DNA of 64,000 nt from positions 160-64,159 of the forward strand of contig DAOKZJ010000001.1 of the NCBI GenBank assembly GCA_035325685.1, given 5' to 3'. This document shows, piece by piece, positions 2,060 through 40,324 of the stretch. A program made the position numbers and the translations under genes. How positions within the stretch are numbered: position 1 is the first letter of the stretch; every line of letters begins with the position of its first letter. This DNA comes from Candidatus Moraniibacteriota bacterium. GTDB lineage: Bacteria > Patescibacteriota > Minisyncoccia > Moranbacterales > GWC2-37-73. Below the pieces are notes generated by a model. That model made no database searches. It was not told the origin of the DNA and worked only from the letters and a program-made list of their open reading frames with translations.

Positions 2060-3121
2060 TTAACCTTGAATTATCCTTTCGCGTTCCACCGTTATTCTTT
2101 CCGTTCCGACCAAGCCAAAACGCGCCAAAACTTTAAAAACAGGATCCGCCACCCAGACCACTATTCCCGAAAGAAAAGATCCCAGTGGCAAAATAGTGAG
2201 CAAAAGAAGTGTCGCCAAGAGCAAGGGAAAAGCATTCACCTTCTGATCCGGCATGGTATCCGGAGCCAAATATTCGGCGATACGCTTGTTTATAATCAAG
2301 GTAAATATCTGCGAGACAGACTCGCTCCCTTGCAGCTCCCTTCCAGCCAAAATACCTAGCTGCCTCCTTCCCTCCGCCAAAAGAAGCGCTTGCTGCTGAG
2401 CCATTATCCTTTGGGAAAATTCCTGCGTTTTTTCCCGGGTCTCTCTTTTTGCTACCTGGCGCTGCTCCGGGGTCAATTCCGTGGGAAGATTGTCTTCAAT
2501 CAGCTGTTCCGTTTGCAAATCCATCTCTGTCGGCAAATTTTCCTGCTGGGAACTAAGGATGAATTCATCCACTGTCGCATCTTTTCGAGCCAGGGAAGAA
2601 AATTGCGGACTTACGAAAGCCAGCGCTTTGCCCAGATAATGAGCGCCGCGCGAACCCACTTGGATGCGCGGCATCGCTTTTTCTCCACTACTAGTGGAAA
2701 TGAGTGCGTAATATTGCACTGCCACCATTAGCGCAAGCGCCAAAACCACCAAAGCTTTTCCCGTACGCAAAGATTTGGCCAAATTTATGCGGATATTGAG
2801 ATCCAAATCCGTCCGGATGCGCCTGGCGCCAGCTGCAATAAGAGCTGTGGCCAAAAAGGCCGCCAGCGCCACCTCTTTAGAAGGGGAAAAAAGGAGCGCC
2901 CCGAAACAAACCGCGGCCGCAGCTATTTCCGCAAGCATGAAATCGCGGCACAGAAAGATCGCAAAAGAAAGCAAAAAGAAGACCAACAGAAACCAAAGTG
3001 CCGGCACTGTCCACGTGCTGGCTCCGACGTCAACCGCCGCCCTTTGCACGCTGTGCCAAAATCCCAGCGCCGCAAGCGGCGCAGCCACGGCCAAATAATT
3101 GGCCCATTTATTTTTACGCAT
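2060..3121 (-). CDS. Hypothetical membrane protein
   Basis: 353-aa ORF with N-terminal and C-terminal hydrophobic helices and a central Q/E-rich region. No family recognised. Confidence 0.55.
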   Translation of the reverse strand: MRKNKWANYLAVAAPLAALGFWHSVQRAAVDVGASTWTVPALWFLLVFFLLSFAIFLCRDFMLAEIAAAAVCFGALLFSPSKEVALAAFLATALIAAGARRIRTDLDLNIRINLAKSLRTGKALVVLALALMVAVQYYALISTSSGEKAMPRIQVGSRGAHYLGKALAFVSPQFSSLARKDATVDEFILSSQQENLPTEMDLQTEQLIEDNLPTELTPEQRQVAKRETREKTQEFSQRIMAQQQALLLAEGRRQLGILAGRELQGSESVSQIFTLIINKRIAEYLAPDTMPDQKVNAFPLLLATLLLLTILPLGSFLSGIVVWVADPVFKVLARFGLVGTERITVERERIIQG

Positions 3122-3566
3122 GCTTCCATCTTACCATCGATCCGCCGATAAAAAAACGGGGCAGCCTTTTGGCTACCCCCGGGGAACCGTGGATGCTCAC
3201 TGAGAGCAGATGGGATCCGGGCAATCCCCGCCGTGGATCGGACATCCCTCCTCCTTCCCCCTTCCTCCGCAAAGAGGGGTGCCCGGAGAAGTTTTGGGAC
3301 CATCCACCTTGCACCTCCCCATTTCGGGAGTCACGATTCCAACTCCCACGTCCACCGTTACTTTTTTTTCCCCACTCATACGGCTCCTCCCGCCCAATCT
3401 TCTGGCGCTTCTTTTTGGCGCGGTCTTTGCCGCGCTTAGCTGTCCTTTTCTTATCTCTTTTTTCAATATTTGTCAACACTCTTGCCTAATTTGAGATTTT
3501 CCTTATACTGCCTTAGGATGAATATCCGGCTGTTTTTTAAAATAACCTAAGTGCCAGGAGGAAAAG

Positions 3567-27776: not shown

Positions 27777-30215
27777 CTACTTTCGCAGCGCCACCGGAAG
27801 TTCTTTTTCCATCTGGGCAATAATTTTTTCCAGCGCCACTTCCGCTTCCTGCCCGCTAAGCGTGCGTTCTTTGGAACCAAGCGTGATGTGCAACGCGTAA
27901 CTCACCGTCCCATCCTTGGAAACAAAGGTGTCGAAAAGCTCCACTTCCCTAACCAGGGGATCGCTTTGCTTGATTATCTTTTCCAATTCAGCCGCTTTGA
28001 GAGATCCGCGCACCTCCAAAGACAGGTCGCGCCGTACATAAGGAAATTTGGGAGCTTCTTCATATTCCCTTTTTTGTCGTGCTGCTGCTTCGCGCCATTT
28101 GTCTATTTCCAATTCGCAAAGAGCCAAGCCTTCCGGAATATCCGCGGCGGCGGCGACAAAAGGATTGACTTCGCCGCAATACCCGAGCGGTTCATCCATT
28201 CCTTCCACTCTTATTTCGGCACTCCGCCCCTTGCGCCAAAAAGATTTCCATTGCCCCGCGGGCGCACCGTCCAGATCGGAAAGGTACCAATCCTTAATCC
28301 CCGCCGCTTCCAAAAGCGCCCCGCAGCTGTGCTTGATTGCAAAAAAGATCTGTCCGCTGCGCACATCCGCAGCAGGAAAACTTTCTTCAGGGATATCCCC
28401 GCTCAAAGCAAGCAGCAGCATTTCCTTTTCCTCTATTTCCCCTTGCGCATTGTACCGGTAAACCCTGCCCTCTTCAAAAGCACGTATCTGCCTTCGGTAT
28501 TTAAGGTTTTCCCTGATCGCCTTGAGCATATTGGGAACCAGACTTGCTCTCATCAAAGAAAGTTCCGGACTTTGCGGGTTTTCAATTTCCACATGCGCTA
28601 CTCCTTCCAATCCGCCCATATTGGCTTCCTTTGGGCCATAAAAAGCATAGTTGTACACTTCGGAAAATTTCTCACCGGCCGCCCAATGCTTGGCTTTGCG
28701 CACAAAAACACGGCGCTCATTAACCTGCGGCGAAGCAACGGAAACCAACGGGGCAGCCGGCCCTATCTTGTCATAACCGGCGATCCGGCCGATTTCCTCA
28801 ATCAAATCTTCCGCGCTAACTACATCCAACCGAAAAGCAGGGACCTGGACTTTCAATTTTGCGCCGCCGGACATAACAACAAAGCCCAAGGAAGAAAGAA
28901 TCCTTTTGGCCTCTTTTTCTTTCAAGACAATGCCCAAGAGTTTTTGGGCCTTTTCCATTTCCAAGGAAAGAAGAGGTGTTTTTTCCTTTTTTAACTTCTC
29001 CATAGCAACCCCCTCCAACTTCCCTCCGGCCGTGTGAGTTATAATTTCCACGCAACGCACCAACGCCTTTTCGGCAATGCTCGGCGATATTCCTTTTTCG
29101 AACCGGAGTGCCGCATCGGTGGCAAAACCGCTACGCATGCGGCTGCGCCTGATCGTGGCCCCATCAAAAGTGGCTGCCTCCAGCACGATATTTTCGGTTC
29201 TGTCACTAACGGCACTTTCTACTCCCCCCATGATACCGGCCAAGGCGATCGCTCCCTTGCTGTCCGCGATTACGATATCTTCCCCGGCGCATAGCGCAGC
29301 ATCGACTCCGTCCAACAAGGAAATCCTCTCTCCTTCCTTGGCCAGACGCACCATTATTCCTCCGGAAAGCTTGTCGGCATCAAAAGCGTGCAGCGGATTG
29401 CCCAGTTCCAGCATCACGTAATTTGTCGCATCCACGACGTTGTTGATCGGTTTTATGCCGCAAGCCCTCAGTCTGCGAACAAGCCAATCCGGCGAAGGGC
29501 CGACTTTCACCCCTTCGATAAGCGCGCAGCTATAAAAAGGCGTTTTGGCGTTTTTGGCAACTGACACTTTTATCTTCTTGCTTTTTTGCGAAAGGGGCTT
29601 TATCTCGTCATAGGCATACTCCATTTTTGTGCCTTCAATGGCCGCTATTTCCCGCGCCATACCGACATGGCTGAGCGCATCATGCGCGCGGTTAGCCAAA
29701 ACATCTATTTCCAAAACGATGTCTTCCAGACCCAGTTGCTTGGCCAAAGATTCACCCACTTTGGCTTTTCGATCCAAGATCATTATTCCGCTGTGATCCT
29801 CGCCCAACCCCAATTCGTCCTTCGCGCACAGCATCCCAAAAGAACGCACGCCGCGGATTTCAGCTTCCTTTATCTCTAATCCGCCGGGAAGCTTGGCACC
29901 CACCAAAGCCAGCGGCACCTTATCGCCCACCGCTATATTATGCGCGCCGCACACGACCGTAAGCGAATCGCGCCTTTTTTGCTCGCTTCCCCAAAAAGAA
30001 AATTTTCCAGCATCGACTTGTACGACCTGCAACCTATCCGCATTCGGATGCTTTGCTATTTCCAATATCTCGCCCACCACCACGTTCTCCAAGGAAGCAT
30101 CCTGCCTGGACATGCCCTCCACCTCAAAAGCATGCATCATGATACGCTCACCAAGTTCTTTGGCGGAAAGAGAGGTGTTTGTAAGCTCCTTGAGCCATTT
30201 ATAGGAATATTTCAT
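27777..30215 (-). CDS. pheT: Phenylalanine--tRNA ligase beta subunit
   Basis: Begins MKYSYKWLKEL, the typical PheT N-terminus, with tRNA-binding, B3/B4, B5 and FDX-ACB regions. The upstream in-frame extension in the track is ignored. Confidence 0.93.
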   Translation of the reverse strand: MKYSYKWLKELTNTSLSAKELGERIMMHAFEVEGMSRQDASLENVVVGEILEIAKHPNADRLQVVQVDAGKFSFWGSEQKRRDSLTVVCGAHNIAVGDKVPLALVGAKLPGGLEIKEAEIRGVRSFGMLCAKDELGLGEDHSGIMILDRKAKVGESLAKQLGLEDIVLEIDVLANRAHDALSHVGMAREIAAIEGTKMEYAYDEIKPLSQKSKKIKVSVAKNAKTPFYSCALIEGVKVGPSPDWLVRRLRACGIKPINNVVDATNYVMLELGNPLHAFDADKLSGGIMVRLAKEGERISLLDGVDAALCAGEDIVIADSKGAIALAGIMGGVESAVSDRTENIVLEAATFDGATIRRSRMRSGFATDAALRFEKGISPSIAEKALVRCVEIITHTAGGKLEGVAMEKLKKEKTPLLSLEMEKAQKLLGIVLKEKEAKRILSSLGFVVMSGGAKLKVQVPAFRLDVVSAEDLIEEIGRIAGYDKIGPAAPLVSVASPQVNERRVFVRKAKHWAAGEKFSEVYNYAFYGPKEANMGGLEGVAHVEIENPQSPELSLMRASLVPNMLKAIRENLKYRRQIRAFEEGRVYRYNAQGEIEEKEMLLLALSGDIPEESFPAADVRSGQIFFAIKHSCGALLEAAGIKDWYLSDLDGAPAGQWKSFWRKGRSAEIRVEGMDEPLGYCGEVNPFVAAAADIPEGLALCELEIDKWREAAARQKREYEEAPKFPYVRRDLSLEVRGSLKAAELEKIIKQSDPLVREVELFDTFVSKDGTVSYALHITLGSKERTLSGQEAEVALEKIIAQMEKELPVALRK

Positions 30216-30265
30216 ATTCGTTTTACAATCTGCGCAAGAAAAGAAAAGCGCAGCCGTTGCATTTA

Positions 30266-31315
30266 TTAGAATTGTTCGGTAAACCTCAGATCTCCACTGT
30301 GGAAAAGACGGATGTCCGGGATGCGACTGCGCATCATCAAAAGCCTTTCCAAGCCGAACCCCCAGGCGAATCCTTGCCATTGTCCGCGCCTGTATCCGGC
30401 AGCGACAAACACTTCCTGGTTGACCATGCCGGCGCCGCCCACTTCCAGCCAGCCGGTATGCTTGCAAGAAGCGCATCCTCGCCCTCCGCAAACCGTACAG
30501 CTGATATCAAATTCAAAGCTCGGCTCCGTAAACGGAAAGAAGCTGGGACGCAACCTCACGGTCACATCCTGCCCAAAAAAACGCGAAAAAAACTCCTGCG
30601 CCACATGCTTGAAGTTGCCCACATTTATTTCTTTATCCACCATCAGCGCCTCGAACTGGTAAAAAGTATGTTCGTGTGTCGCATCCGTCGCCTCGTTACG
30701 AAAGCATTTCCCCGGAGCAATGATGCGCAGCGGCGGCTTATGGGTCTGCATATAACGCACCTGCACCGGCGAAGTGTGCGTGCGCAAAAGAATCCTTTCT
30801 CTCTTTTTCTCCGCTCTGAAATTTGGATTTTCGGATTTTATCCAAAAAGTATCCCATTTGTCGCGTGCCGGATGATCTTTGGGTATGTTGAGCGCGTCAA
30901 AATTGTGCCATTCCGTTTCTATGTCCGGACCATCCGCAACCGCAAAGCCCATCGCCCCGAAAATATCTTCAATTTCTTCCTGAATAAGCGTAAGTGGGTG
31001 CAGATGCCCTCTTTTGATTTTCTTGGCCGGGAGCGTCACGTCCAGATTTTTAGCTGCCGCACCCAACTGCAAGTTCCTGAGCTCTTCTTCCTTTCGGGCA
31101 AAGGCCGCCTCTATTTCCGCCCTCGCTTCGTTGGCTACCTTACCCGCCTCAAAACGCTCCTTTTCTTCCATATCTTTAAGGGAGCGGAGCAGCGCCGTCA
31201 GTTCACTTTTACGCCCGGCGTATTTTACCCGCGCACTTTCCAAATCAGCCAAAGATGAAGCTGCTGCCGCGGCGGCCAATGCCTTGCTTTTGAGATCGAA
31301 GATTTTTTGCTGCAT
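30266..31315 (-). CDS. pheS: Phenylalanine--tRNA ligase alpha subunit
   Basis: Class II motifs (LRTHTSPVQVR, FRNEATDATHEHTFYQFE, GFAWGFGLERL). Start at MQQKIFDL. Confidence 0.95.
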   Translation of the reverse strand: MQQKIFDLKSKALAAAAAASSLADLESARVKYAGRKSELTALLRSLKDMEEKERFEAGKVANEARAEIEAAFARKEEELRNLQLGAAAKNLDVTLPAKKIKRGHLHPLTLIQEEIEDIFGAMGFAVADGPDIETEWHNFDALNIPKDHPARDKWDTFWIKSENPNFRAEKKRERILLRTHTSPVQVRYMQTHKPPLRIIAPGKCFRNEATDATHEHTFYQFEALMVDKEINVGNFKHVAQEFFSRFFGQDVTVRLRPSFFPFTEPSFEFDISCTVCGGRGCASCKHTGWLEVGGAGMVNQEVFVAAGYRRGQWQGFAWGFGLERLLMMRSRIPDIRLFHSGDLRFTEQF

Positions 31316-31528
31316 AAACGTAAAAAAAGAAAAATATGCGCCGCTGCCAAACGGCGACGATACTGTAATACTACCAAGGCACCCCTTGATTTGCAACTGC
31401 CGTTTTTGAGCCAAGGAAAAGTCTTTTTCGCGCTTCTCTTGACTTTAAATTATTTTAGGTGTATAATTAGAGATTACGTCCCCTGGTTACCCAAGTTTTT
31501 TGACAAAAATGAAAGAGAGGAAGAACTC

Positions 31529-32299
31529 ATGCTTTCCAAAACAGCGCTACTTACCCGCAAAGCGGAACATTGTCTCCATAAGCACTGGGAAAAAACGTGC
31601 GCTTGGTGGTCGGAAAAGCCTAATTCCAGGCAAATAATCTGGGCCCTTGCTTGCGCCTCAACCGCTTCCTTGTTGTTTTTATGGATTCATCATTTTTTGG
31701 CTTTCACGATTTTGCGCCTTTGGGCGGATGTGCTGATGCTCCTGCTGAGCATATCCGTAATGATGCTTTTCTTTTTGCTCATAACCAAAACTCTTCGCCT
31801 CAAAAGCGAAGTGGAAAAGGTTTCCGTGAAAGATCCCCTTACCGGGCTGTACAACCGCCGCTTCCTGGAAATGCAACGGGATGCGATAGAAGAGCAAGCT
31901 AGGCGTACCGGACTGCCTTACGGCGTAGCCATGATCGATGTCGACAACCTCAAACCCATCAACGACACTTTCGGCCACGCAAGCGGAGACCGGTTGCTTA
32001 AGGAAGTAGCCGCGCTCATCAAAGGAACTATCCGTAAAAACGACCAAGCCTTTCGCCTGGGCGGGGACGAATTCATGATCATCTGTTTTTTTGGGAAAGA
32101 CGAATCGTCCGACTCCTTCGAAGACAGGCTGCGCGAATCCCTGGGCAGATTTCCCTTCCGCGAACAAGGAGTGGACGTCGTGGCCTCCGCCTCTTTGGGA
32201 GTCGCCATCTGTGTGGATGCGCGAAAAAATTCGCTTGAAAGCGTCATCCATGTAGCGGACATGAACATGTACCGCGAAAAAGCGGCGCGTAAACGCTGA
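31529..32299 (+). CDS. GGDEF-domain diguanylate cyclase with an N-terminal membrane anchor
   Basis: DPLTGLYNRR...IDVDNLKPINDTFGHASGD...RLGGDEF. SD aaAGAGAGGaagaactc-ATG. Two N-terminal TM helices. Confidence 0.85.
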   Translation: MLSKTALLTRKAEHCLHKHWEKTCAWWSEKPNSRQIIWALACASTASLLFLWIHHFLAFTILRLWADVLMLLLSISVMMLFFLLITKTLRLKSEVEKVSVKDPLTGLYNRRFLEMQRDAIEEQARRTGLPYGVAMIDVDNLKPINDTFGHASGDRLLKEVAALIKGTIRKNDQAFRLGGDEFMIICFFGKDESSDSFEDRLRESLGRFPFREQGVDVVASASLGVAICVDARKNSLESVIHVADMNMYREKAARKR

Positions 32300-32360: not shown

Positions 32361-32636
32361 CTACAAAAGGCCCAGTCTTTTTTTGGCTTCGAATACCTGG
32401 TGGCGGTTCATCTGCCCGCTTTTTTCCATTTGTTCAAGCATTTCCACTATTTGTTTCTTGTTCTTTTGGATGTTGTCTGGCGAAAGCATCTTGCGCATCA
32501 GCGCTTCGCGCTCGCTTGGATTCATCTTCATGATCTTTTTGTACGCGATGCGCTGGAGCATCCCCATATTCTGAGGATCCAGGGGATTTGCGGCAGAGCT
32601 TTCCTTTTTTTTCTTAAACTTGTCCAAAATTCCCAT
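32361..32636 (-). CDS. Hypothetical protein (91 aa)
   Basis: Met- and Lys-rich small ORF downstream of secF. No family recognised. Confidence 0.4.
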   Translation of the reverse strand: MGILDKFKKKKESSAANPLDPQNMGMLQRIAYKKIMKMNPSEREALMRKMLSPDNIQKNKKQIVEMLEQMEKSGQMNRHQVFEAKKRLGLL

Positions 32637-32708: not shown

Positions 32709-33611
32709 TTATTTGTTATGCTTTTTTGCCATCCAGTCCCGACTTGTCACCAAAAGCGAAGAAGCGATAAAGATGGACGAATAAGTGCCGAACGTGATGC
32801 CGATAAGCAATGCCAACGAGAAGTCCCGGATCGATTCGCCGCCGAAAAGATAGATGGCCAGCAGCGTGATAATCACCGTGAGCGAAGTGTTGATCGAGCG
32901 CACGATCGTTTCATTGAGACTGCGATTAACCGTGGCGGCAAAAGTCTTTTCCGGCGAGCGCAACAGATTTTCGCGCGTACGGTCGTATACCACGATCGTG
33001 TCATGTACCGAAAATCCCAAAATGGTAAGGAGCGCGGCCACAAACGGAATGCCCACTTCCACCGAATAAAAATGGCCCAGCGCAGCGAATGCGCCGACCG
33101 TGATAAGGATGTCGTGTACCAGTGCCACTACCGCCAATGCGCCATATTGCCAAGAAGGCACGGGACGCGACACTTTGCGAAAAGCCCAGGCAATATACGC
33201 CATAATTGCCGCAACTGCCCAAAAAATCGCCAACAAAGAATTGCGCTTCAATTCGCCCGAAACGGTCGAATTGATGAAATCCACCCTGAGTCGTACCGCG
33301 TCTGTCCATTTGGCGGAAATTGCTTGCCAGGCTTTCTCGTTAACCGCGTCATCTTCGCTGGCATAGCGCAAAAGGGCGCTGCCGTCACCGGAAGCCTGGA
33401 TGGTAAGACTTTGCAAATTTTCTCCTTGCAAAACCTCGCTTATTTCCGTATTTTGCGGCACGCCGGACGGGAAACGCACTTCCATAAGCGTTCCTCCGGA
33501 AAAGTCGATGCCGAACTTAAGACCCCAGGTGGCAACGCTTAGGATAGCCGCTGCGGTAATAACGAGGGAAAAGGCATAGGCGTAGCGCCTTTTGGAAACT
33601 ATATCTATCAT
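32709..33611 (-). CDS. secF: Protein translocase subunit SecF
   Basis: SecF architecture with six TM helices and conserved FGIDFSGGT. Confidence 0.93.
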   Translation of the reverse strand: MIDIVSKRRYAYAFSLVITAAAILSVATWGLKFGIDFSGGTLMEVRFPSGVPQNTEISEVLQGENLQSLTIQASGDGSALLRYASEDDAVNEKAWQAISAKWTDAVRLRVDFINSTVSGELKRNSLLAIFWAVAAIMAYIAWAFRKVSRPVPSWQYGALAVVALVHDILITVGAFAALGHFYSVEVGIPFVAALLTILGFSVHDTIVVYDRTRENLLRSPEKTFAATVNRSLNETIVRSINTSLTVIITLLAIYLFGGESIRDFSLALLIGITFGTYSSIFIASSLLVTSRDWMAKKHNK

Positions 33612-33616
33612 ATTTT

Positions 33617-35311
33617 TTACTTTTTTTCGGTCTTATTTTCAATATATCCTCCTTTTGCCACATGCATAAACACCCAGGGATGTTTATCCGCCCAATCTCC
33701 GGAAATAAAGCGAAGGATGGTGCGACTCACCACTACCGCCGTAAACATGGACACCACCACGCCCAAAAAGAGCGTGGCCGCAAATCCTTTGACAAATCCC
33801 GTACCCATGCCGTAAAGAATGGCTGCCGTGATAAGTGAAGAAACGTTACCATCTCTGATCGATGTCCAGGCGCGCACAAATCCTTCCTCCAGCGCTGCGC
33901 GCGAAGATCTTCCGCGCCTGAGCTCTTCCTTGGTTCGCTCAAAGATGAGAATGTTGGCATCCACCGCCATCCCGATAGACAAAATGAAACCGGCAATGCC
34001 CGAAAGAGTCAACGTGATGCCCGGAAAAATCTTGAAGATGGAAATCATCAGCGCCGTGTAAATGACAAGCGCCAAAGAAGCGGCCAGGCCTAAAAAGCGG
34101 TAATAGACGACCATGAAAAAGATCACCGTGCCCAGACCAATCGCGCCCGCTTTCAAGCTTTGCCGCAAAGAAGCTTCCCCCAAGGAAGCTTCGATGCTGC
34201 TTTGGCTGACCAAAGTCAAGGGCACCGGCAAAGCTCCCTGGTTGAGATTCTTGGCCAATTCCTTAGCTTCAGTCACGGTAAAGCTCCCGGTAATGACGGC
34301 TTCGCCGTTGGTTATTTCTGTCTGCACGGTGGGGCTGGAAAGGAGTTCGCCGTCCAAAAAGATCGCCAACGGCTTACCGATATTATTCTTGGTAAGCTCC
34401 GCGAACATCTTCGTTCCTTCGTCGTCAAATTTTAAAGAAATTTGCGGCTCACTTATGCCTTGGCTGGCAAAAACCACCGTCGCACTCTTCAGGTTTCTGC
34501 CCGTAAGGCCGGTATCGACGAATTTGAATTCACTGTATTGTTCGGGCGACTGCTTGGCAAACAAGATATGCCTGGCACGCACTTCCTTTTCCTCTCCTTC
34601 GCCGCGCGATTCTTCGAATTTGATAATGTGCCAGCCAAATTGGGTTTCCACCAATTGACCATAGACCTCCCCGGCTTTGAGGTTTTTGCCAAAAAGGACT
34701 TCGTCAAATTCCGGAACAAATGTTCCTTTTTTAACGAAATCCAGATCCCCGCCTTTTTCCTTGGTTCCCGGATCTTGACTCAACTCTTTGGCCAAAGCCG
34801 CAAAATCCTGCCCGGCCAAAGCTTTTTTGAGCGTTTCTTCAGCTTGGGACTTGGCCTCCTCGTTGAGATTATCAAACATCTCCTTTATTTCCGCACTCGG
34901 CTCCCCTTCCTGTTTGAATTCCAACAAAGGCGTTTCTTTTATTTTTTGCTTGGCTTGTTCTATATCCTTTATTCCCGGAAGTTCCACAATGATGCGGTAA
35001 TCATCGCCGCGGCGCGCTGCCTGCACCAATGGTTCACCCACCCCGAACGCATTGACGCGCCTTTCGATCACGTCCTGCGCCCCGCTCAAAGATTCGGAAA
35101 TTTTGTCCGCCTCTATCTTACTCACGTCCGCTTGGTATTCCAGGTGGATTCCTCCTTGCAAATCCAAACCCAAACTGAGTTTCAGCTTGGCAAGGGAATT
35201 ATGAAGATATGGCACCCCCCGAACAGCTTCCGGGTAAGAAACCAAAGCGCTGGCCGCAAAAAGTAGCATGACCAGGGCGAATTTGAGACGCAATTTTGAT
35301 TTGGTATTCAT
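33617..35311 (-). CDS. secD: Protein translocase subunit SecD carrying an inserted parvulin-type PPIase domain
   Basis: SecD signature LGLDLQGGIHLEY and a C-terminal 6-TM SSD-like region. Residues ~160-255 read as a PpiC/parvulin domain (GQDFAALAKELSQDPGTKEKGGDLDFVKKGTFVPEFDEVLF...GEVYGQLVETQFGWHIIKF). Confidence 0.9.
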   Translation of the reverse strand: MNTKSKLRLKFALVMLLFAASALVSYPEAVRGVPYLHNSLAKLKLSLGLDLQGGIHLEYQADVSKIEADKISESLSGAQDVIERRVNAFGVGEPLVQAARRGDDYRIIVELPGIKDIEQAKQKIKETPLLEFKQEGEPSAEIKEMFDNLNEEAKSQAEETLKKALAGQDFAALAKELSQDPGTKEKGGDLDFVKKGTFVPEFDEVLFGKNLKAGEVYGQLVETQFGWHIIKFEESRGEGEEKEVRARHILFAKQSPEQYSEFKFVDTGLTGRNLKSATVVFASQGISEPQISLKFDDEGTKMFAELTKNNIGKPLAIFLDGELLSSPTVQTEITNGEAVITGSFTVTEAKELAKNLNQGALPVPLTLVSQSSIEASLGEASLRQSLKAGAIGLGTVIFFMVVYYRFLGLAASLALVIYTALMISIFKIFPGITLTLSGIAGFILSIGMAVDANILIFERTKEELRRGRSSRAALEEGFVRAWTSIRDGNVSSLITAAILYGMGTGFVKGFAATLFLGVVVSMFTAVVVSRTILRFISGDWADKHPWVFMHVAKGGYIENKTEKK

Positions 35312-35390
35312 AGGATGCATTATAGAATGAGGCGGCAAATAAGGCAAATAAAAGAAGCGGGACAAATTTTATCCCGCTTTTTCCAAAAAC

Positions 35391-35942
35391 TCAGGTCAAC
35401 GCAGTCTTTTTCGGATAACCGCCCAATTCGGCTTCCCCGACAAGTTTGGCAAAGATTGCCTTACTCAGCTCCTCGGCACGCCCCGTTAGGGCCAGATAAG
35501 AAACGCAGCCGCGCCGCAGACTTCTAAGCAATTCTTTTCGACCACGACAAACGGCTTTGAAACTGGCCAATTCCTGATAAGAAAGCCGGTATTCTTTTTG
35601 CCACAACCCCTTTTCTATTTTTTCGTAAAGGACAAGCAATTCACAAACAAGACCGTATTGCTCCGTCAGTTTTTCCAAATAAAGGCCTACCCGCGCCGCC
35701 TTGGACCAAGGGAAAAAATCGATAAATGGGCCCAAGAAAAAAACTTTGCTCTTGGCCTGCGCCAATTCCCCCTTGGCGAAAGAAATTTTCTCTTCCAGAT
35801 GCGCTTTGAGGTCCTCGAAATCACCCCTGAGTCTTAGAAAAAGCTTTCCCCAAAAACAAAGATTCTCCATACATCCTCCCTTGTATGCGCCTTTCGGGCA
35901 AAAATAAGCGCCATCGCCAAGCGATATCGCTTCAAATCCCAT
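35391..35942 (-). CDS. Hypothetical protein (183 aa)
   Basis: ORF from the track. No family recognised. Confidence 0.45.
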   Translation of the reverse strand: MGFEAISLGDGAYFCPKGAYKGGCMENLCFWGKLFLRLRGDFEDLKAHLEEKISFAKGELAQAKSKVFFLGPFIDFFPWSKAARVGLYLEKLTEQYGLVCELLVLYEKIEKGLWQKEYRLSYQELASFKAVCRGRKELLRSLRRGCVSYLALTGRAEELSKAIFAKLVGEAELGGYPKKTALT

Positions 35943-36009: not shown

Positions 36010-36276
36010 TTATTTAACCAAAAACTTCCAGCGACTTTCCAGATCTCGCTCGATCTGCACTAGATCTTCCTCGTCCCGAAAAAAACCGTAGCCGCGTTTT
36101 TCTTCGATCAATCCGCGCACCATATCCCGGTAAGCATCGAAATCCTCTATTCCTTCCTCCTCCACTTTTTCTTTAAGCTCGCGAAAAAGCTGCTGAGAAG
36201 AGTATTCCGCTCCTGAATATTGTATGTTTTCCATATATTTTTTTGGGAAAATACTCCACCTTGGAAATACCCCCAA
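36010..36276 (-). CDS. Hypothetical small acidic protein
   Basis: ORF from the track; the start is uncertain (possibly MENIQYS). Confidence 0.35.
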   Translation of the reverse strand: MGVFPRWSIFPKKYMENIQYSGAEYSSQQLFRELKEKVEEEGIEDFDAYRDMVRGLIEEKRGYGFFRDEEDLVQIERDLESRWKFLVK

Positions 36277-36279
36277 AAA

Positions 36280-36786
36280 TTACCGCTTCTTATGCGGTAA
36301 TACATCCGAAAAAAAACCCTCTTTCCCTTTCCGAGAAATGAAAAGATGTGCTTTTTGAAGAATGCGCCGCGTTCCCTTGGCGCGGACCTTTTGGAGCGCT
36401 TGCTCTATGTTGCTCCAGGAATAAGCTGAATTTTCGTGATCAAGTGTGACCTTTTCGGTATCCGTGACAGTGAGGTAATAAACAGCTTTTTTGCCTATGA
36501 ATATGCCGCGTCCTTCCTCCCGCCGTTCCTTCAATTCGTTTCCCTTGGCGCGATAAGCATAAAAACTGCTCTTCCTGAAACCCAAAGCTCTCTCGATATC
36601 CCTCAGGCCGGTTTCTTCTTGCACCTCGCGTTGAAGCGTGTCTTCTTCCTTTTCTCCTTTTTCCATGTGGCCCTTGGGCAAATCCCATTGACCGCTGCGA
36701 TATTTGAGCAGCAAATAAAGAGGTGTTTCATTTTCGAACCTCACAATGACAGCACCCACTGATTTTTCGAAGGAAATAAACTTCAT
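36280..36786 (-). CDS. NUDIX hydrolase
   Basis: Nudix box GHMEKGEKEEDTLQREVQEETGL. Start at MKFISFEK. Confidence 0.85.
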   Translation of the reverse strand: MKFISFEKSVGAVIVRFENETPLYLLLKYRSGQWDLPKGHMEKGEKEEDTLQREVQEETGLRDIERALGFRKSSFYAYRAKGNELKERREEGRGIFIGKKAVYYLTVTDTEKVTLDHENSAYSWSNIEQALQKVRAKGTRRILQKAHLFISRKGKEGFFSDVLPHKKR

Positions 36787-36847
36787 AAGGACATCATAAC
36801 ATGAAGATGCATCCCGTCCCAGGATGCATCTTTGCACAACTTACAAG

Positions 36848-37249
36848 CTATTTCGCTTTGGTAGTGGCGCTGCGCGATTCGGAATAAGAGCTATAACCGC
36901 TGTCTCCCGAAGCTTTTTTGATCTTAACCTTGAACGAGTATTTCACTCCCGGCTTCAAGTCGTCGATCACCAGCTTCTTGCGCCCTTCGTCTTCGCTAAG
37001 CGTCTTACGGTAAGTACGCGTTTCCACCATGCCGGTGGAATTGTCACGAATCCTTACCTTTATGACAACCCTTTCATCCTCCCGCTCCTCGTACTTAAGA
37101 GGAAGCGTTATGCTCGTGGTCGTCCGCTTAGTTATCTCCTTAATCTTCGGCTTGGACGCAAGTGCTCCAGAAAACGGAGCCAACAATATCGTCATCGCAA
37201 AAGCTGAAACCAATCCCGCCAAAGCGACTTTTCTACTTATGCTACGCAT
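36848..37249 (-). CDS. Secreted fibronectin type III-like domain protein
   Basis: Signal peptide (MRSISRKVALAGLVSAFAMTILLAPFSGALA) and an FN3-like strand pattern (LKPGVKYSFKVKIKK). Confidence 0.55.
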   Translation of the reverse strand: MRSISRKVALAGLVSAFAMTILLAPFSGALASKPKIKEITKRTTTSITLPLKYEEREDERVVIKVRIRDNSTGMVETRTYRKTLSEDEGRKKLVIDDLKPGVKYSFKVKIKKASGDSGYSSYSESRSATTKAK

Positions 37250-37661: not shown

Positions 37662-37761
37662 CCGACCCCTTTCCTGGCCGCAACAATTAAAAAACCTTCT
37701 TACTTCCCGCAGCACTTTTTGAATTTCTTGTCGCTGCCGCACGGACAAGGATCGTTGCGGC
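37662..37761. repeat. 100-bp direct repeat, copy 2 (authentic secA 3' end plus 3' UTR)
   Basis: Spans the last ~20 codons of secA and ~38 nt downstream. The copies are separated by a 63-nt spacer that holds the hairpin cgggaaaacc-ca-ggttttcccg. Confidence 0.85.
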
Positions 37762-40324
37762 CTACTGTAGAAGTATTTTTTTGGGGAAGCGTGGCTCCTT
37801 TTTGCGGGGAGACCGCAAATTGCCCCACCTCCTCGTCCGCGCCGCTGTAGCGCAACCCTTCGGGCACCTTTGTTTCCTTGGCCGGCGTTTCCACGCTCAC
37901 TTGACTGATATGGAAAATGGTGCGCAGCACCGTGGTGCGGATGTTTTCTACCAGATGGGAAAAGAGGTTGAAAGCTTCCCGCTTGTACTCAATAAGCGGA
38001 TCGCGTTGACCATAACCTCTAAGCCCTATTCCTTGCCTCAAATAATCTATTTCATCCAAATGATTCATCCAGAGCGTATCTATCGTTTGCAGCAAAATGC
38101 TTTTTTCCACCGAGCGCATCAGTTCCGCTCCGAGCGCGCTTTCCTTGGCTATATAAGCTTCCTTGGCTGCCTGGATAACCTCCCCCGTAAGCGCGGTCGC
38201 TTTTTCGGAATCATTTTTGGATCTGTCTTCCCCGATCGCCTTAAGTTTGACTCTTATCTCCTCCGAAATTGCAAACACTGCCGCCGCATCCGCCGCAACA
38301 CCCTCCGTGTCCCAAAAAGTTCCCTCCCCCCCGGCAATACGTGCCGAAACCATCCGCTCTGCCGCTTCTTCCGTGTATTTAAGTATGTCCTGCTTCACCT
38401 CTTTCTTTTCCAGCGCTTCGCGACGCTTCCGGTATATCACTTCGCGCTGCTTATTCATCACGTCGTCATACTCCAGAACATGTTTGCGCATATCGAAGTT
38501 ATACCCTTCGATTTTGGTCTGGGCGCTTTCGATTGTTTTGGAAATGAGCGCGTTTTGAATCGGTTGATCTTCCGGAAGACCCAGTTTATCCATCATCCCC
38601 TTGAGTCGGTCTCCGCCGAAACGCCGCATCAACTCATCTTCCAGGGAAACATAGAACTGGCTCACCCCCGGATCTCCTTGGCGTCCGGCGCGACCGCGCA
38701 ACTGATTATCGATGCGCCGCGCTTCATGTCTTTCCGTACCGATAATAAAAAGCCCGCCTTTTTCACGCACACCCTCCCCTAATTTTATGTCCGTTCCGCG
38801 CCCCGCCATATTGGTGGCGATAGTCACCGCCCCCATTCTTCCAGCGTCAGCCACGATTGCTGCTTCCCTTTCGTGCTGCTTGGCGTTGAGCACTTCGTGC
38901 CTTACTCCTTCCTTTTTGAGCAATGCGCTCAAATATTCGGATTTCTCGATGGCGATAGTACCGACCAATACCGGCTGCCCTTTGGCATGCACCTCTTTTA
39001 TTCTTTCCACAATAGCGGCAAACTTCCCTTTTTCCGTTTTATAAACCACATCTCCCAAATCCTTGCGGACAAGTGATTTATTGGTGGGTATCTCCAAGAC
39101 ATCCAGTTTGTACACTTTGGAAAATTCTTCCGCACTGGTGGAAGCCGTTCCGGTCATGCCGGCAAGCTTTTCATACATGCGAAAATAATTTTGGAAAGTG
39201 ATTGTGGCCAAAGTGCGGGATTCTTTTTGCACCTCCACTCCTTCCTTGGCCTCGATCGCCTGATGCAAGCCGTCGCTGTAACGCCTGCCCGGCATAAGCC
39301 GCCCCGTAAAGTCATCCACGATAATCACCTCTCCATCTTTCACTACATAATCGCGATCCAGCTTATAAAGCGCGTGTGCACGGAGTGATTGCTCCAGATG
39401 ATGCACATAGTTGATCTTTCCGGGATCGTAAATATTGCCCATGCCTAAGGCATTTTCCACCTTGGCTATTCCGGATTCAGTAAGAACCGCCGCACGCATT
39501 TTTTCGTCCACTTCGTAATCAACCCCTTCCTTAAGGAGAGGCACGATTCCGGCAAAACGCTGGTAGAGTTTGGTCGACTCGCTGTCCGGCGCCGAAATAA
39601 TGAGCGGCGTGCGCGCTTCATCGATCAAGATGGAGTCCACTTCGTCCACGATTGCGAAATTAAGGGGGCGCTGCACCATCTGGGCAAGCGATTGCGCCAT
39701 GTTGTCGCGCAGATAATCAAATCCGAACTCATTATTGGTACCGTAAGTTATATCCGCTTCGTAAGCTTGCCTGCGTGAAACGGGAGTAAGATTTTCCATT
39801 TCCACCGTAACCTCGTCCGCATCCCGCACTTTGGGCTGAAAAAGATAGGAAGCATCATGCATTATGCAAGCCGTCGTAAGGCCCAAAAAATGATAAATTG
39901 ATCCCATCCAGTTGCAGTCACGCCTGGCCAGATAATCATTGACCGTCACCACATGTACTCCCTTGCCGCTCAAAGCATTCAGATAAATAGGCAACGTGGA
40001 GGTAAGGGTTTTTCCTTCCCCTGTTTTCATTTCCGCTATTTTGCCTTGGTGCAAAACAATTCCTCCGATCAACTGCACTTCGTAATGACGCTCGCCGATG
40101 ACCCGCTCCGCCGCCTCACGCACCACCGCAAAAGCTTCCGGCAAAATATCTTCCAGCGTTTCTCCTTTGGCCAGTCTTTGGCGAAACTCCCCTGTCTTGG
40201 CGGCAAGCTCTTCGTCCGAAAGACGTCTTGTCGCTTCTTCCAGCGAGTTTATTTTGCCCGCCAAGGGGCGCAATTTGGCTATCTCCCTTTCGTTTGAACC
40301 GAAAATATTGCTCAAAAATCCCAT
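37700..40324 (-). CDS. secA: Protein translocase ATPase SecA
   Basis: DEAD-like motor domains, preprotein cross-linking domain, and the C-terminal zinc-binding [14 protein letters not shown]. Confidence 0.97.

Follow-up and report, generated by a model that had tools for sequence, protein, structure and literature searches.

The window analysed here, a stretch of 64,000 nucleotides from a Candidatus Moraniibacteriota bacterium, carries a secD gene at 33617..35311 on the minus strand, as are all features described below. A single long open reading frame (33617..35365), continuous throughout, encloses positions 34600-34890, where a sequence-only reading of this DNA had proposed a parvulin-type peptidyl-prolyl isomerase (PPIase) domain embedded in SecD. 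The ATG at 35311 is most likely the secD start codon and, with the stop codon at 33617, yields a protein of 564 amino acids, whose numbering is used throughout. Database comparison returned 100% identity over the full length to a protein translocase subunit SecD from a Candidatus Moranbacteria bacterium (P0001). The peptide quoted for the proposed isomerase is encoded exactly on this strand, and positions 34600-34890 correspond to residues about 141-238 of SecD. The secF gene (32709..33611; 300 amino acids; PF02355, E 8.4e-56, plus Sec_GG) begins 6 bp past the secD stop codon, and the two genes probably form one operon. A promoter-like sequence, TTGCCT-17-TATAAT (35347-35319), lies just before the secD start codon and a terminator-like hairpin of the upstream gene lies at 35379-35355; both are putative, being consensus matches only.

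Outside the proposed isomerase, the protein has the architecture of SecD as defined by Pfam matches and modelled helices: TM1, a large P1 domain made up of base and head, and five C-terminal TM helices, with secF adjacent. The NCBIfam model TIGR01129 (secD) matched residues 47-533 over its entire length (profile positions 1-397 of 397) with 390.5 bits against a cut-off of 244.4. Alignment to Thermus SecDF (3aqp) gave an E value of 9.8e-77, and a Foldseek search with the SecD model returned SecDF structures as the best matches. TM1 (residues ~8-25, LKFALVMLLFAASALVSY; 35237..35290) is a hydrophobic stretch in the sequence and falls within a model helix spanning residues 3-25. From this N-terminal helix and the homology to SecD, we infer that P1 and everything inserted into it would lie outside the cytoplasmic membrane. 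The N-terminal part of the P1 base (SecD_1st, PF21760, E 4.6e-17; residues 78-135; 34907..35080) aligns to Thermus SecDF 32-119, and its last strand, LLEFK (model strand 130-135), enters the insert. The P1 head (SecDF_P1_head, PF22599, E 2.3e-31, profile positions 19-114 of 114) occupies residues 267-363 (34223..34513). The membrane domain, TM2-TM6 (SecD_SecF_C, residues 367-536; 33704..34213), was assigned from Pfam and the Thermus alignment. It contains D451, which is invariant in 81 homologues; here GMAVD451ANILIFER pairs with Thermus GAAVDGNVLSFER, the aspartate being that of AVDGN. We take it to be the counterpart of Thermus D340, the conserved membrane Asp of the proton pathway.

Between the base and the head lies an inserted segment of residues 136-262 (34526..34906), which Pfam, a de-permuted construct and structure models identify as a circularly permuted parvulin. 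The part that matches Pfam linearly, from α1 to β4, covers residues 149-234 (34610..34867) and includes D180, L190, F198, F202, T223 and H228. Searches with the full SecD sequence gave 79.5 bits for Rotamase_3 (PF13616, residues 150-234, E 3.7e-22, cut-off 22.5) and 73.4 bits for Rotamase (PF00639, residues 149-233, E 3.1e-20, cut-off 21.7), scores that are far above chance. These two matches sit between SecD_1st and SecDF_P1_head, and the segment has no alignment to a normal P1 head. Instead, SecD 44-134 pairs with Thermus 32-119 and SecD 269-537 with Thermus 160-426, leaving ~134 residues between the LLEFK base strand and the head as compared to ~40 in Thermus, a net gain of ~94 amino acids. 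Thus, both profile searches and the comparison with Thermus bear out the proposal of a parvulin-type domain embedded in the extracytoplasmic P1 of SecD. A helix at residues 140-165, which HMMER weakly aligned to Thermus 120-154, was considered as a part of the P1 head and ruled out: Rotamase covers residues 149-165 as α1, and a model of the insert alone packs the helix confidently with the parvulin.

When searched alone, the insert also matches the NCBIfam models for PrsA, SurA and PpiC, and its best sequence matches in the PDB include PrsA and the P2 domain of SurA. The PrsA, SurA and PpiD models cover the parvulin part only and score far under their cut-offs, and no Pfam match to SurA_N or a related chaperone domain was found in SecD. 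The fusion is therefore not a member of the PrsA/SurA/PpiD-type chaperones, though it may work like one. An HMM built from the insert detected no second parvulin within the 64-kb window.

The parvulin in SecD has the family fold in circularly permuted form, with β1 placed after β4. The usual linear order of a parvulin is β1-α1-α2-α3-β2-α4-β3-β4, and the insert departs from it, running α1-α2-α3-β2-α4-β3-β4-loop-β1. In parvulins, β1 carries the first catalytic His. In native order, the Pfam Rotamase match spans only profile positions 14-96 of 97, with the N-terminal β1 absent from its usual place; the strand is found further along, where β4 (FGWHIIKF) is followed by a short loop (EESRGEGEEK) and then by EVRARHILFA. 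This relocated β1, identified by the de-permuted construct, the models and conservation, occupies residues 243-252 (34556..34585) and bears His248. The loop between β4 and β1 (residues 237-242, GEGEEK; 34586..34603) was delimited by conservation and is part of a conserved RGEG motif. The sequence-only reading had described a complete parvulin followed by ARHILF. The domain is real, but in linear order it is incomplete, and ARHILF is the missing β1 itself; moreover, this strand lies outside and downstream of 34600-34890, the interval given there for the domain.

Placing the VRARHILF strand ahead of α1 in the de-permuted construct extended the PF00639 match to profile positions 1-96 and raised its score to 78.6 bits, compared with 76.8 for the native order. 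Similarly, Rotamase_3 aligned over profile positions 14-113 with 87.8 bits (84.0 native). The gain of about 2-4 bits is small because β1 is short. Many Pin1 chains align with the de-permuted sequence across the whole PPIase domain.

Structure models gave the same order of elements, and the insert has the three-dimensional fold of a parvulin. The full-length AlphaFold2 model, built from an 81-sequence alignment, has a mean pLDDT of 77.7, the insert being the most confident part at 83-91. Its elements are α1 (140-165), α2 (170-177), α3 (181-184), β2 (189-194), α4 (200-208), β4 (226-236) and the strand at 243-252. As its pTM is 0.47, this model makes no statement on where the parvulin sits relative to the P1 head or SecYEG. 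The insert-only model, from 44 diverse sequences, was confident (pLDDT 94, pTM 0.83) and shows the SecD strands entering and leaving the insert on the flanks of the parvulin. In both models β4 (226-236) leads directly into strand 243-252. Judging from the order of secondary structure, model confidence and conservation, the relocated strand appears to take its place in the parvulin sheet. From the known topology of parvulins, the permutation would bring the chain ends to where β1 and α1 are normally joined, near each other and suited to insertion into a loop of a host domain. Of 235 fusions, 186 space the two His by 20 residues. In one fusion (P0125), β4 and the relocated β1 are separated by a long acidic insertion, so the segment between them behaves as a loop.

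The insert retains the residues of a parvulin active site. The counterparts of Pin1 H59, C113, T152 and H157 are presumably H248, D180, T223 and H228 of SecD; an Asp in place of the Cys is usual in bacterial parvulins. All four are present, and L190, F198 and F202 of the hydrophobic proline pocket are conserved. Among 81 close homologues, D180 is found in 81, H228 in 80 and H248 in 79, and position 223 is T or S in all 81. We extended the comparison to 235 fusions taken from two homology searches. Asp at position 180 (Pin1 C113) occurs in 231/235, His at 228 (Pin1 H157) in 233/235, His at 248 (Pin1 H59) in 230/235, and Thr or Ser at 223 (Pin1 T152) in 235/235; in the pocket, Leu at 190 (Pin1 L122) is kept in 230/235 and Phe at 202 (Pin1 F134) in 232/235. 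Within the relocated ARHIL motif, the His is conserved in 230, the Ile in 234 and the Leu in 233 of the 235. The mean majority fraction across this set is 0.81 for the parvulin core, 0.82 for the SecD membrane domain and 0.83 for the P1 base. On this sequence evidence the insert is under strong purifying selection, and its conserved residues are consistent with an active PrsA/Par10-type parvulin that is not phospho-specific. The parvulin domain of PpiD and the P1 domain of SurA have a good fold and are catalytically inactive; because well-folded parvulin domains can be inactive, the conserved residues are no proof of catalysis.

The fusion is widespread among relatives of the source organism. 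SecD domains together with Rotamase were present in 120 of 120 listed homologues of the window SecD (61-88% identity) and in 120 of 120 listed homologues of a divergent fusion (P0137), and most matches in a further homology search also carry this architecture. Going by source names and locus titles, the fusions come from Candidatus Moranbacteria, Veblenbacteria, Kerfeldbacteria, Nomurabacteria, Buchananbacteria, Komeilibacteria and Falkowbacteria, as well as from sources labelled 'Parcubacteria/Patescibacteria group'. At least five genomes of GTDB species carry it (L001-L005), as checked by tblastn with the flanking SecD parts. Among the matches listed in a scan of genome contigs, most were ordinary parvulin genes of many phyla, these five were the only SecD fusions, and none was seen outside Patescibacteria. 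The junction motifs PLLEFKE and TGL(T/S)GK are common to the fusions, indicating that the insertion site is identical throughout. The source organism is uncultured and its genome was assembled from a metagenome, and an artefact of assembly or gene calling, or a recent chance fusion without function, might be suspected on that ground. We regard this as extremely improbable: the reading frame is unbroken, the architecture and its junction motifs recur in hundreds of independent contigs (NCBI, JGI, ENA, Logan) from different sources and candidate phyla, and the insert is under strong purifying selection.

Variants of the fusion point to a source for the permuted order. In SecD proteins of about 670-690 amino acids (P0272, P0364, P0216), Rotamase matches twice, the second time from profile position 1 because the β1 following the first unit is usable. 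Additionally, a protein with three parvulins (P0124) aligns at 40% identity in one unbroken stretch that runs from α1 past β4 and the linker into the β1 of the next domain. Judged from these sequences, the permuted unit is most likely a register-shifted slice of a tandem-parvulin chaperone, since β4 of one domain naturally precedes β1 of the next in such a protein. Separately, a PrsA-like protein from Saccharimonadales (L026) at first resembled a second permuted parvulin; Rotamase_3 aligns to it from profile position 15, and a degenerate canonical β1 may be present.

The ectodomain also exists without the membrane part of SecD. We found free proteins of 349-373 amino acids with lipoprotein-type signal peptides that consist of a P1-base-like region, a permuted parvulin and a P1 head and that end before TM2. 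At one locus (L081) such a gene directly follows secD(parvulin)-secF, and at another (L083) it lies 1.9 kb downstream of the pair. These loci encode both forms, so genomes that bear the fusion also have the P1-parvulin ectodomain as a separate unit. Its existence as a lipoprotein argues for an autonomous, chaperone-like function. The fusion had been put down to genome economy; a free paralogous lipoprotein encoded beside secDF argues against economy as its only driver.

Taken together, we consider it likely that this protein is a real, conserved variant of SecD, bearing in P1 a circularly permuted parvulin that is most likely tandem-derived and that would act on emerging chains. SecDF uses the proton-motive force (PMF) to move the P1 head and thereby pulls unfolded polypeptide out of SecYEG. 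A parvulin beside the P1 head would be the first to meet the emerging chain; it could bind the chain, catalyse cis/trans isomerisation of prolyl bonds and hand the chain on to fold. A single polypeptide would thus do what PpiD, SurA and PrsA-like proteins do elsewhere by docking to the translocon. Most likely, the insert serves emerging chains as a foldase or holdase tethered to the translocon. The analysis shows how the fusion is built, that its parvulin is permuted, how well it is conserved and where it occurs; we infer the catalytic activity of the insert, its contact with substrate and any coupling to movement of the head. A more ambitious version, in which the chain is brought to the isomerase site every time the PMF swings the head, such that pulling and isomerisation form one cycle, is plausible enough to state but rather doubtful; this version also holds that the P1-parvulin ectodomain is an autonomous chaperone unit, duplicated in some Patescibacteria as a free lipoprotein whose gene neighbours secDF.

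The main alternative is that the insert is a non-catalytic module for chaperoning or substrate binding, like P1 of SurA or the parvulin of PpiD, which does no more than enlarge the binding surface of the P1 head. A conserved fold and a hydrophobic pocket would suffice for binding, and it is general knowledge that several translocon-associated parvulin domains have no measurable PPIase activity and still matter for chaperoning. However, the Asp/His/His/Thr(Ser) set is 98-100% conserved in 235 sequences from several candidate phyla, which is tighter than expected for a fold and a groove alone, and the nearest sequence matches (PrsA, SurA P2) are active-type domains. We therefore judge a purely binding role unlikely. 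It is far less probable still that the insert mainly serves SecD itself in a structural or regulatory role, for example by tuning the swing of the P1 head as a spacer or lever or by giving another envelope component a place to dock, and does not act on translocating substrates. The location fits such a role, lying at the boundary of P1 base and head where the movement occurs; other lineages seem to hold different extra sequence there (~40 residues in Thermus), and the NCBIfam SecDF model NF009585 crosses the site in one stretch, with the insert alone giving no match to that model. A mechanical spacer, however, would have no need for conserved catalytic residues, and the P1-parvulin unit also occurs as a free lipoprotein lacking the membrane motor, which speaks for a function independent of head movement.

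In the full-text literature that we searched, neither a SecD-parvulin fusion nor a parvulin with circular permutation is described; a description may exist beyond that literature. Public annotation names the fusions simply 'SecD', and precomputed Pfam annotations show the combination of domains. The protein appears to combine known parts in a new arrangement, one present in databases yet seemingly undescribed, and its insert seems to be a parvulin fold that was circularly permuted in nature. One polypeptide here unites two components that associate only non-covalently in model bacteria, as it does in many relatives among the ultra-small Patescibacteria, with a parvulin that is apparently intact by sequence. 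How chains are handed over from SecYEG to folding factors is still unclear, and evidence for parvulin action at the SecDF P1 head has so far been indirect, namely the crosslinking of PpiD, models of SurA from AlphaFold and the dome seen in Mycoplasma. The conserved, covalent attachment of a parvulin to that very part of SecD, across a large bacterial radiation, offers independent evolutionary support for the partnership and a simple single-chain system for its structural and biochemical study. If the coupled foldase reading were true, the fusion would be direct evolutionary evidence for the SecDF P1 head as the physiological docking site of parvulin chaperones in all bacteria. The fusion would also show how a register-shifted slice of tandem domains can yield a unit with adjoining chain ends that is insertable in another domain, and it bears on the biology of the cell envelope in Patescibacteria, an uncultured and little-studied group.

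Several known systems place a parvulin near the same site. PpiD, with YfgM, is likewise a parvulin-containing chaperone at the periplasmic exit of the SecYEG/SecDF translocon in E. coli and Vibrio; it photo-crosslinks to the SecD P1 head at position D359, and its cooperation with SecD/F late in translocation is non-redundant (PMC7793623; PMC9643414). Unlike the fusion, PpiD is anchored in the membrane as a protein of its own, with chaperone domains of the SurA_N type and a parvulin in canonical order that is reported to be inactive. The parvulin of the SecD fusion is covalently inserted and permuted, lacks a SurA_N domain and retains its catalytic residues. The holo-translocon also binds SurA, whose two parvulin domains AlphaFold predicts on the SecDF P1 head (PMC9987972). 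The tandem parvulins of SurA show the same β4-linker-β1 arrangement as the SecD insert. SurA, however, works in the periplasm of diderm bacteria as a soluble chaperone that brings substrates to BAM, while the fusion has one permuted domain, joined to SecD, in Patescibacteria. The proposed union of PpiD/PrsA-like function and translocon in one chain fits both the contact between PpiD and the P1 head (PMC7793623) and the predicted docking of SurA (PMC9987972).

In Mycoplasma pneumoniae, PrsA-like lipoproteins (the Mdp436/444/489 'dome') cap the Sec/SecDF translocon, and substrate density touches the active parvulin (10.1101/2025.04.25.650208). Both the dome proteins and PrsA of Firmicutes are separate lipoproteins with the parvulin inserted in an N/C chaperone domain; in the fusion, by contrast, SecD P1 houses the parvulin, whose strands follow a permuted order. 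With canonical SecD/SecDF (Thermus thermophilus 3AQP, Deinococcus 5XAN), the fusion has the full framework in common, namely TM1, P1 base and head, TM2-6 and the membrane Asp, and differs by the ~94 extra residues that form the parvulin. Lastly, SlyD carries a chaperone domain, IF, inserted in an FKBP-type PPIase. Like the SecD fusion, it pairs a PPIase with a chaperone or substrate-binding function through insertion of one domain into another. The SecD fusion uses a different PPIase family and the reverse polarity, with the PPIase going into the substrate-handling domain.

The NCBIfam SecDF model NF009585 (993 positions) spans the parvulin insertion site of the window SecD (33617-35311, minus strand) unbroken, with residues 61-534 aligned to profile positions 162-645, while the insert alone gave no match to this model. 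Other lineages may have extra sequence of another kind at this point in P1. If so, the P1 site would be a hot spot for insertion.

Several database SecD proteins carry two parvulin units at one P1 site: P0272 (668 aa), P0364 (685 aa), P0216 (686 aa), P0367, P0373 and P0387 (each ~690 aa), and P0240. The first unit of P0240 has lost the β4 histidine (EGYALYRL). In two-unit SecD, the Pfam Rotamase match of the second unit starts at profile position 1 because this unit uses the β1 strand located after the first unit.

Free proteins of ~350–375 aa with lipoprotein-type signal peptides were also observed (P0192, P0193, P0226, P0241 and P0393-P0404). Each contains a SecD-P1-base-like region, a permuted parvulin and a P1 head, without the membrane domain. 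The gene for such a protein lies directly 3' of secD(parvulin)-secF at locus L081 (8001-9056; NCBI JBPMTB010000006.1) and 1.9 kb downstream of the pair at a second locus, L083 (8001-9095). Thus, the free P1-parvulin protein is a SecD ectodomain that has been duplicated and detached.

A membrane-anchored, PrsA/SurA_N-like protein with a possibly permuted parvulin is encoded in the Candidatus Saccharimonadales MAG CAZWEJ010000011.1 (locus L026, 2353-3429, plus strand), with the strand 'VQASHILIKG' located after β4. Its Pfam Rotamase_3 alignment begins at profile position 15, suggesting that the protein may additionally retain β1 at the canonical place in degenerate form (KIKFQLL).

On the minus strand of the window, secA (37700-40324) precedes secD by ~2.4 kb, and the two Sec genes are loosely clustered. 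Two minus-strand genes lie between them: one (36848-37249) encodes a small protein with an fn3 domain and a signal peptide, the other (36280-36837) a NUDIX hydrolase. Three small ORFs flank secDF on the same strand, encoding 183 aa (35391-35942, directly upstream of secD), 88 aa (36010-36276) and 91 aa (32361-32636), and none of the three has a Pfam match. Convergent with secF, a plus-strand gene (31307-32299) encodes a GGDEF diguanylate cyclase whose N-terminal region contains membrane segments; the long N-terminal extension of this ORF as listed, from a TTG start, may not be real. The next gene is pheS (30266-31414), followed by pheT (27777-30491), both on the minus strand.

A strong terminator-like hairpin (35379-35355, minus strand) stands between the 183-aa ORF and secD. 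Downstream of it is a promoter-like TTGCCT-17-TATAAT (35347-35319, minus strand), with only 7 nt separating the -10 box from the secD ATG. No Shine-Dalgarno sequence is visible before this ATG (35311-35379, minus strand). Together, the short spacing and the lack of a visible Shine-Dalgarno sequence suggest that the secD mRNA may be translated leaderless or nearly so.

Outside the Patescibacteria, a Prosthecochloris sp. MAG (RAZP01000019.1, locus L020), from a green sulfur bacterium, encodes an ordinary parvulin (3001-3315) ~2.5 kb downstream of a SecD/SecF-type membrane-domain gene (7-522). This neighbourhood may be an echo of the SecD-parvulin partnership or a coincidence.
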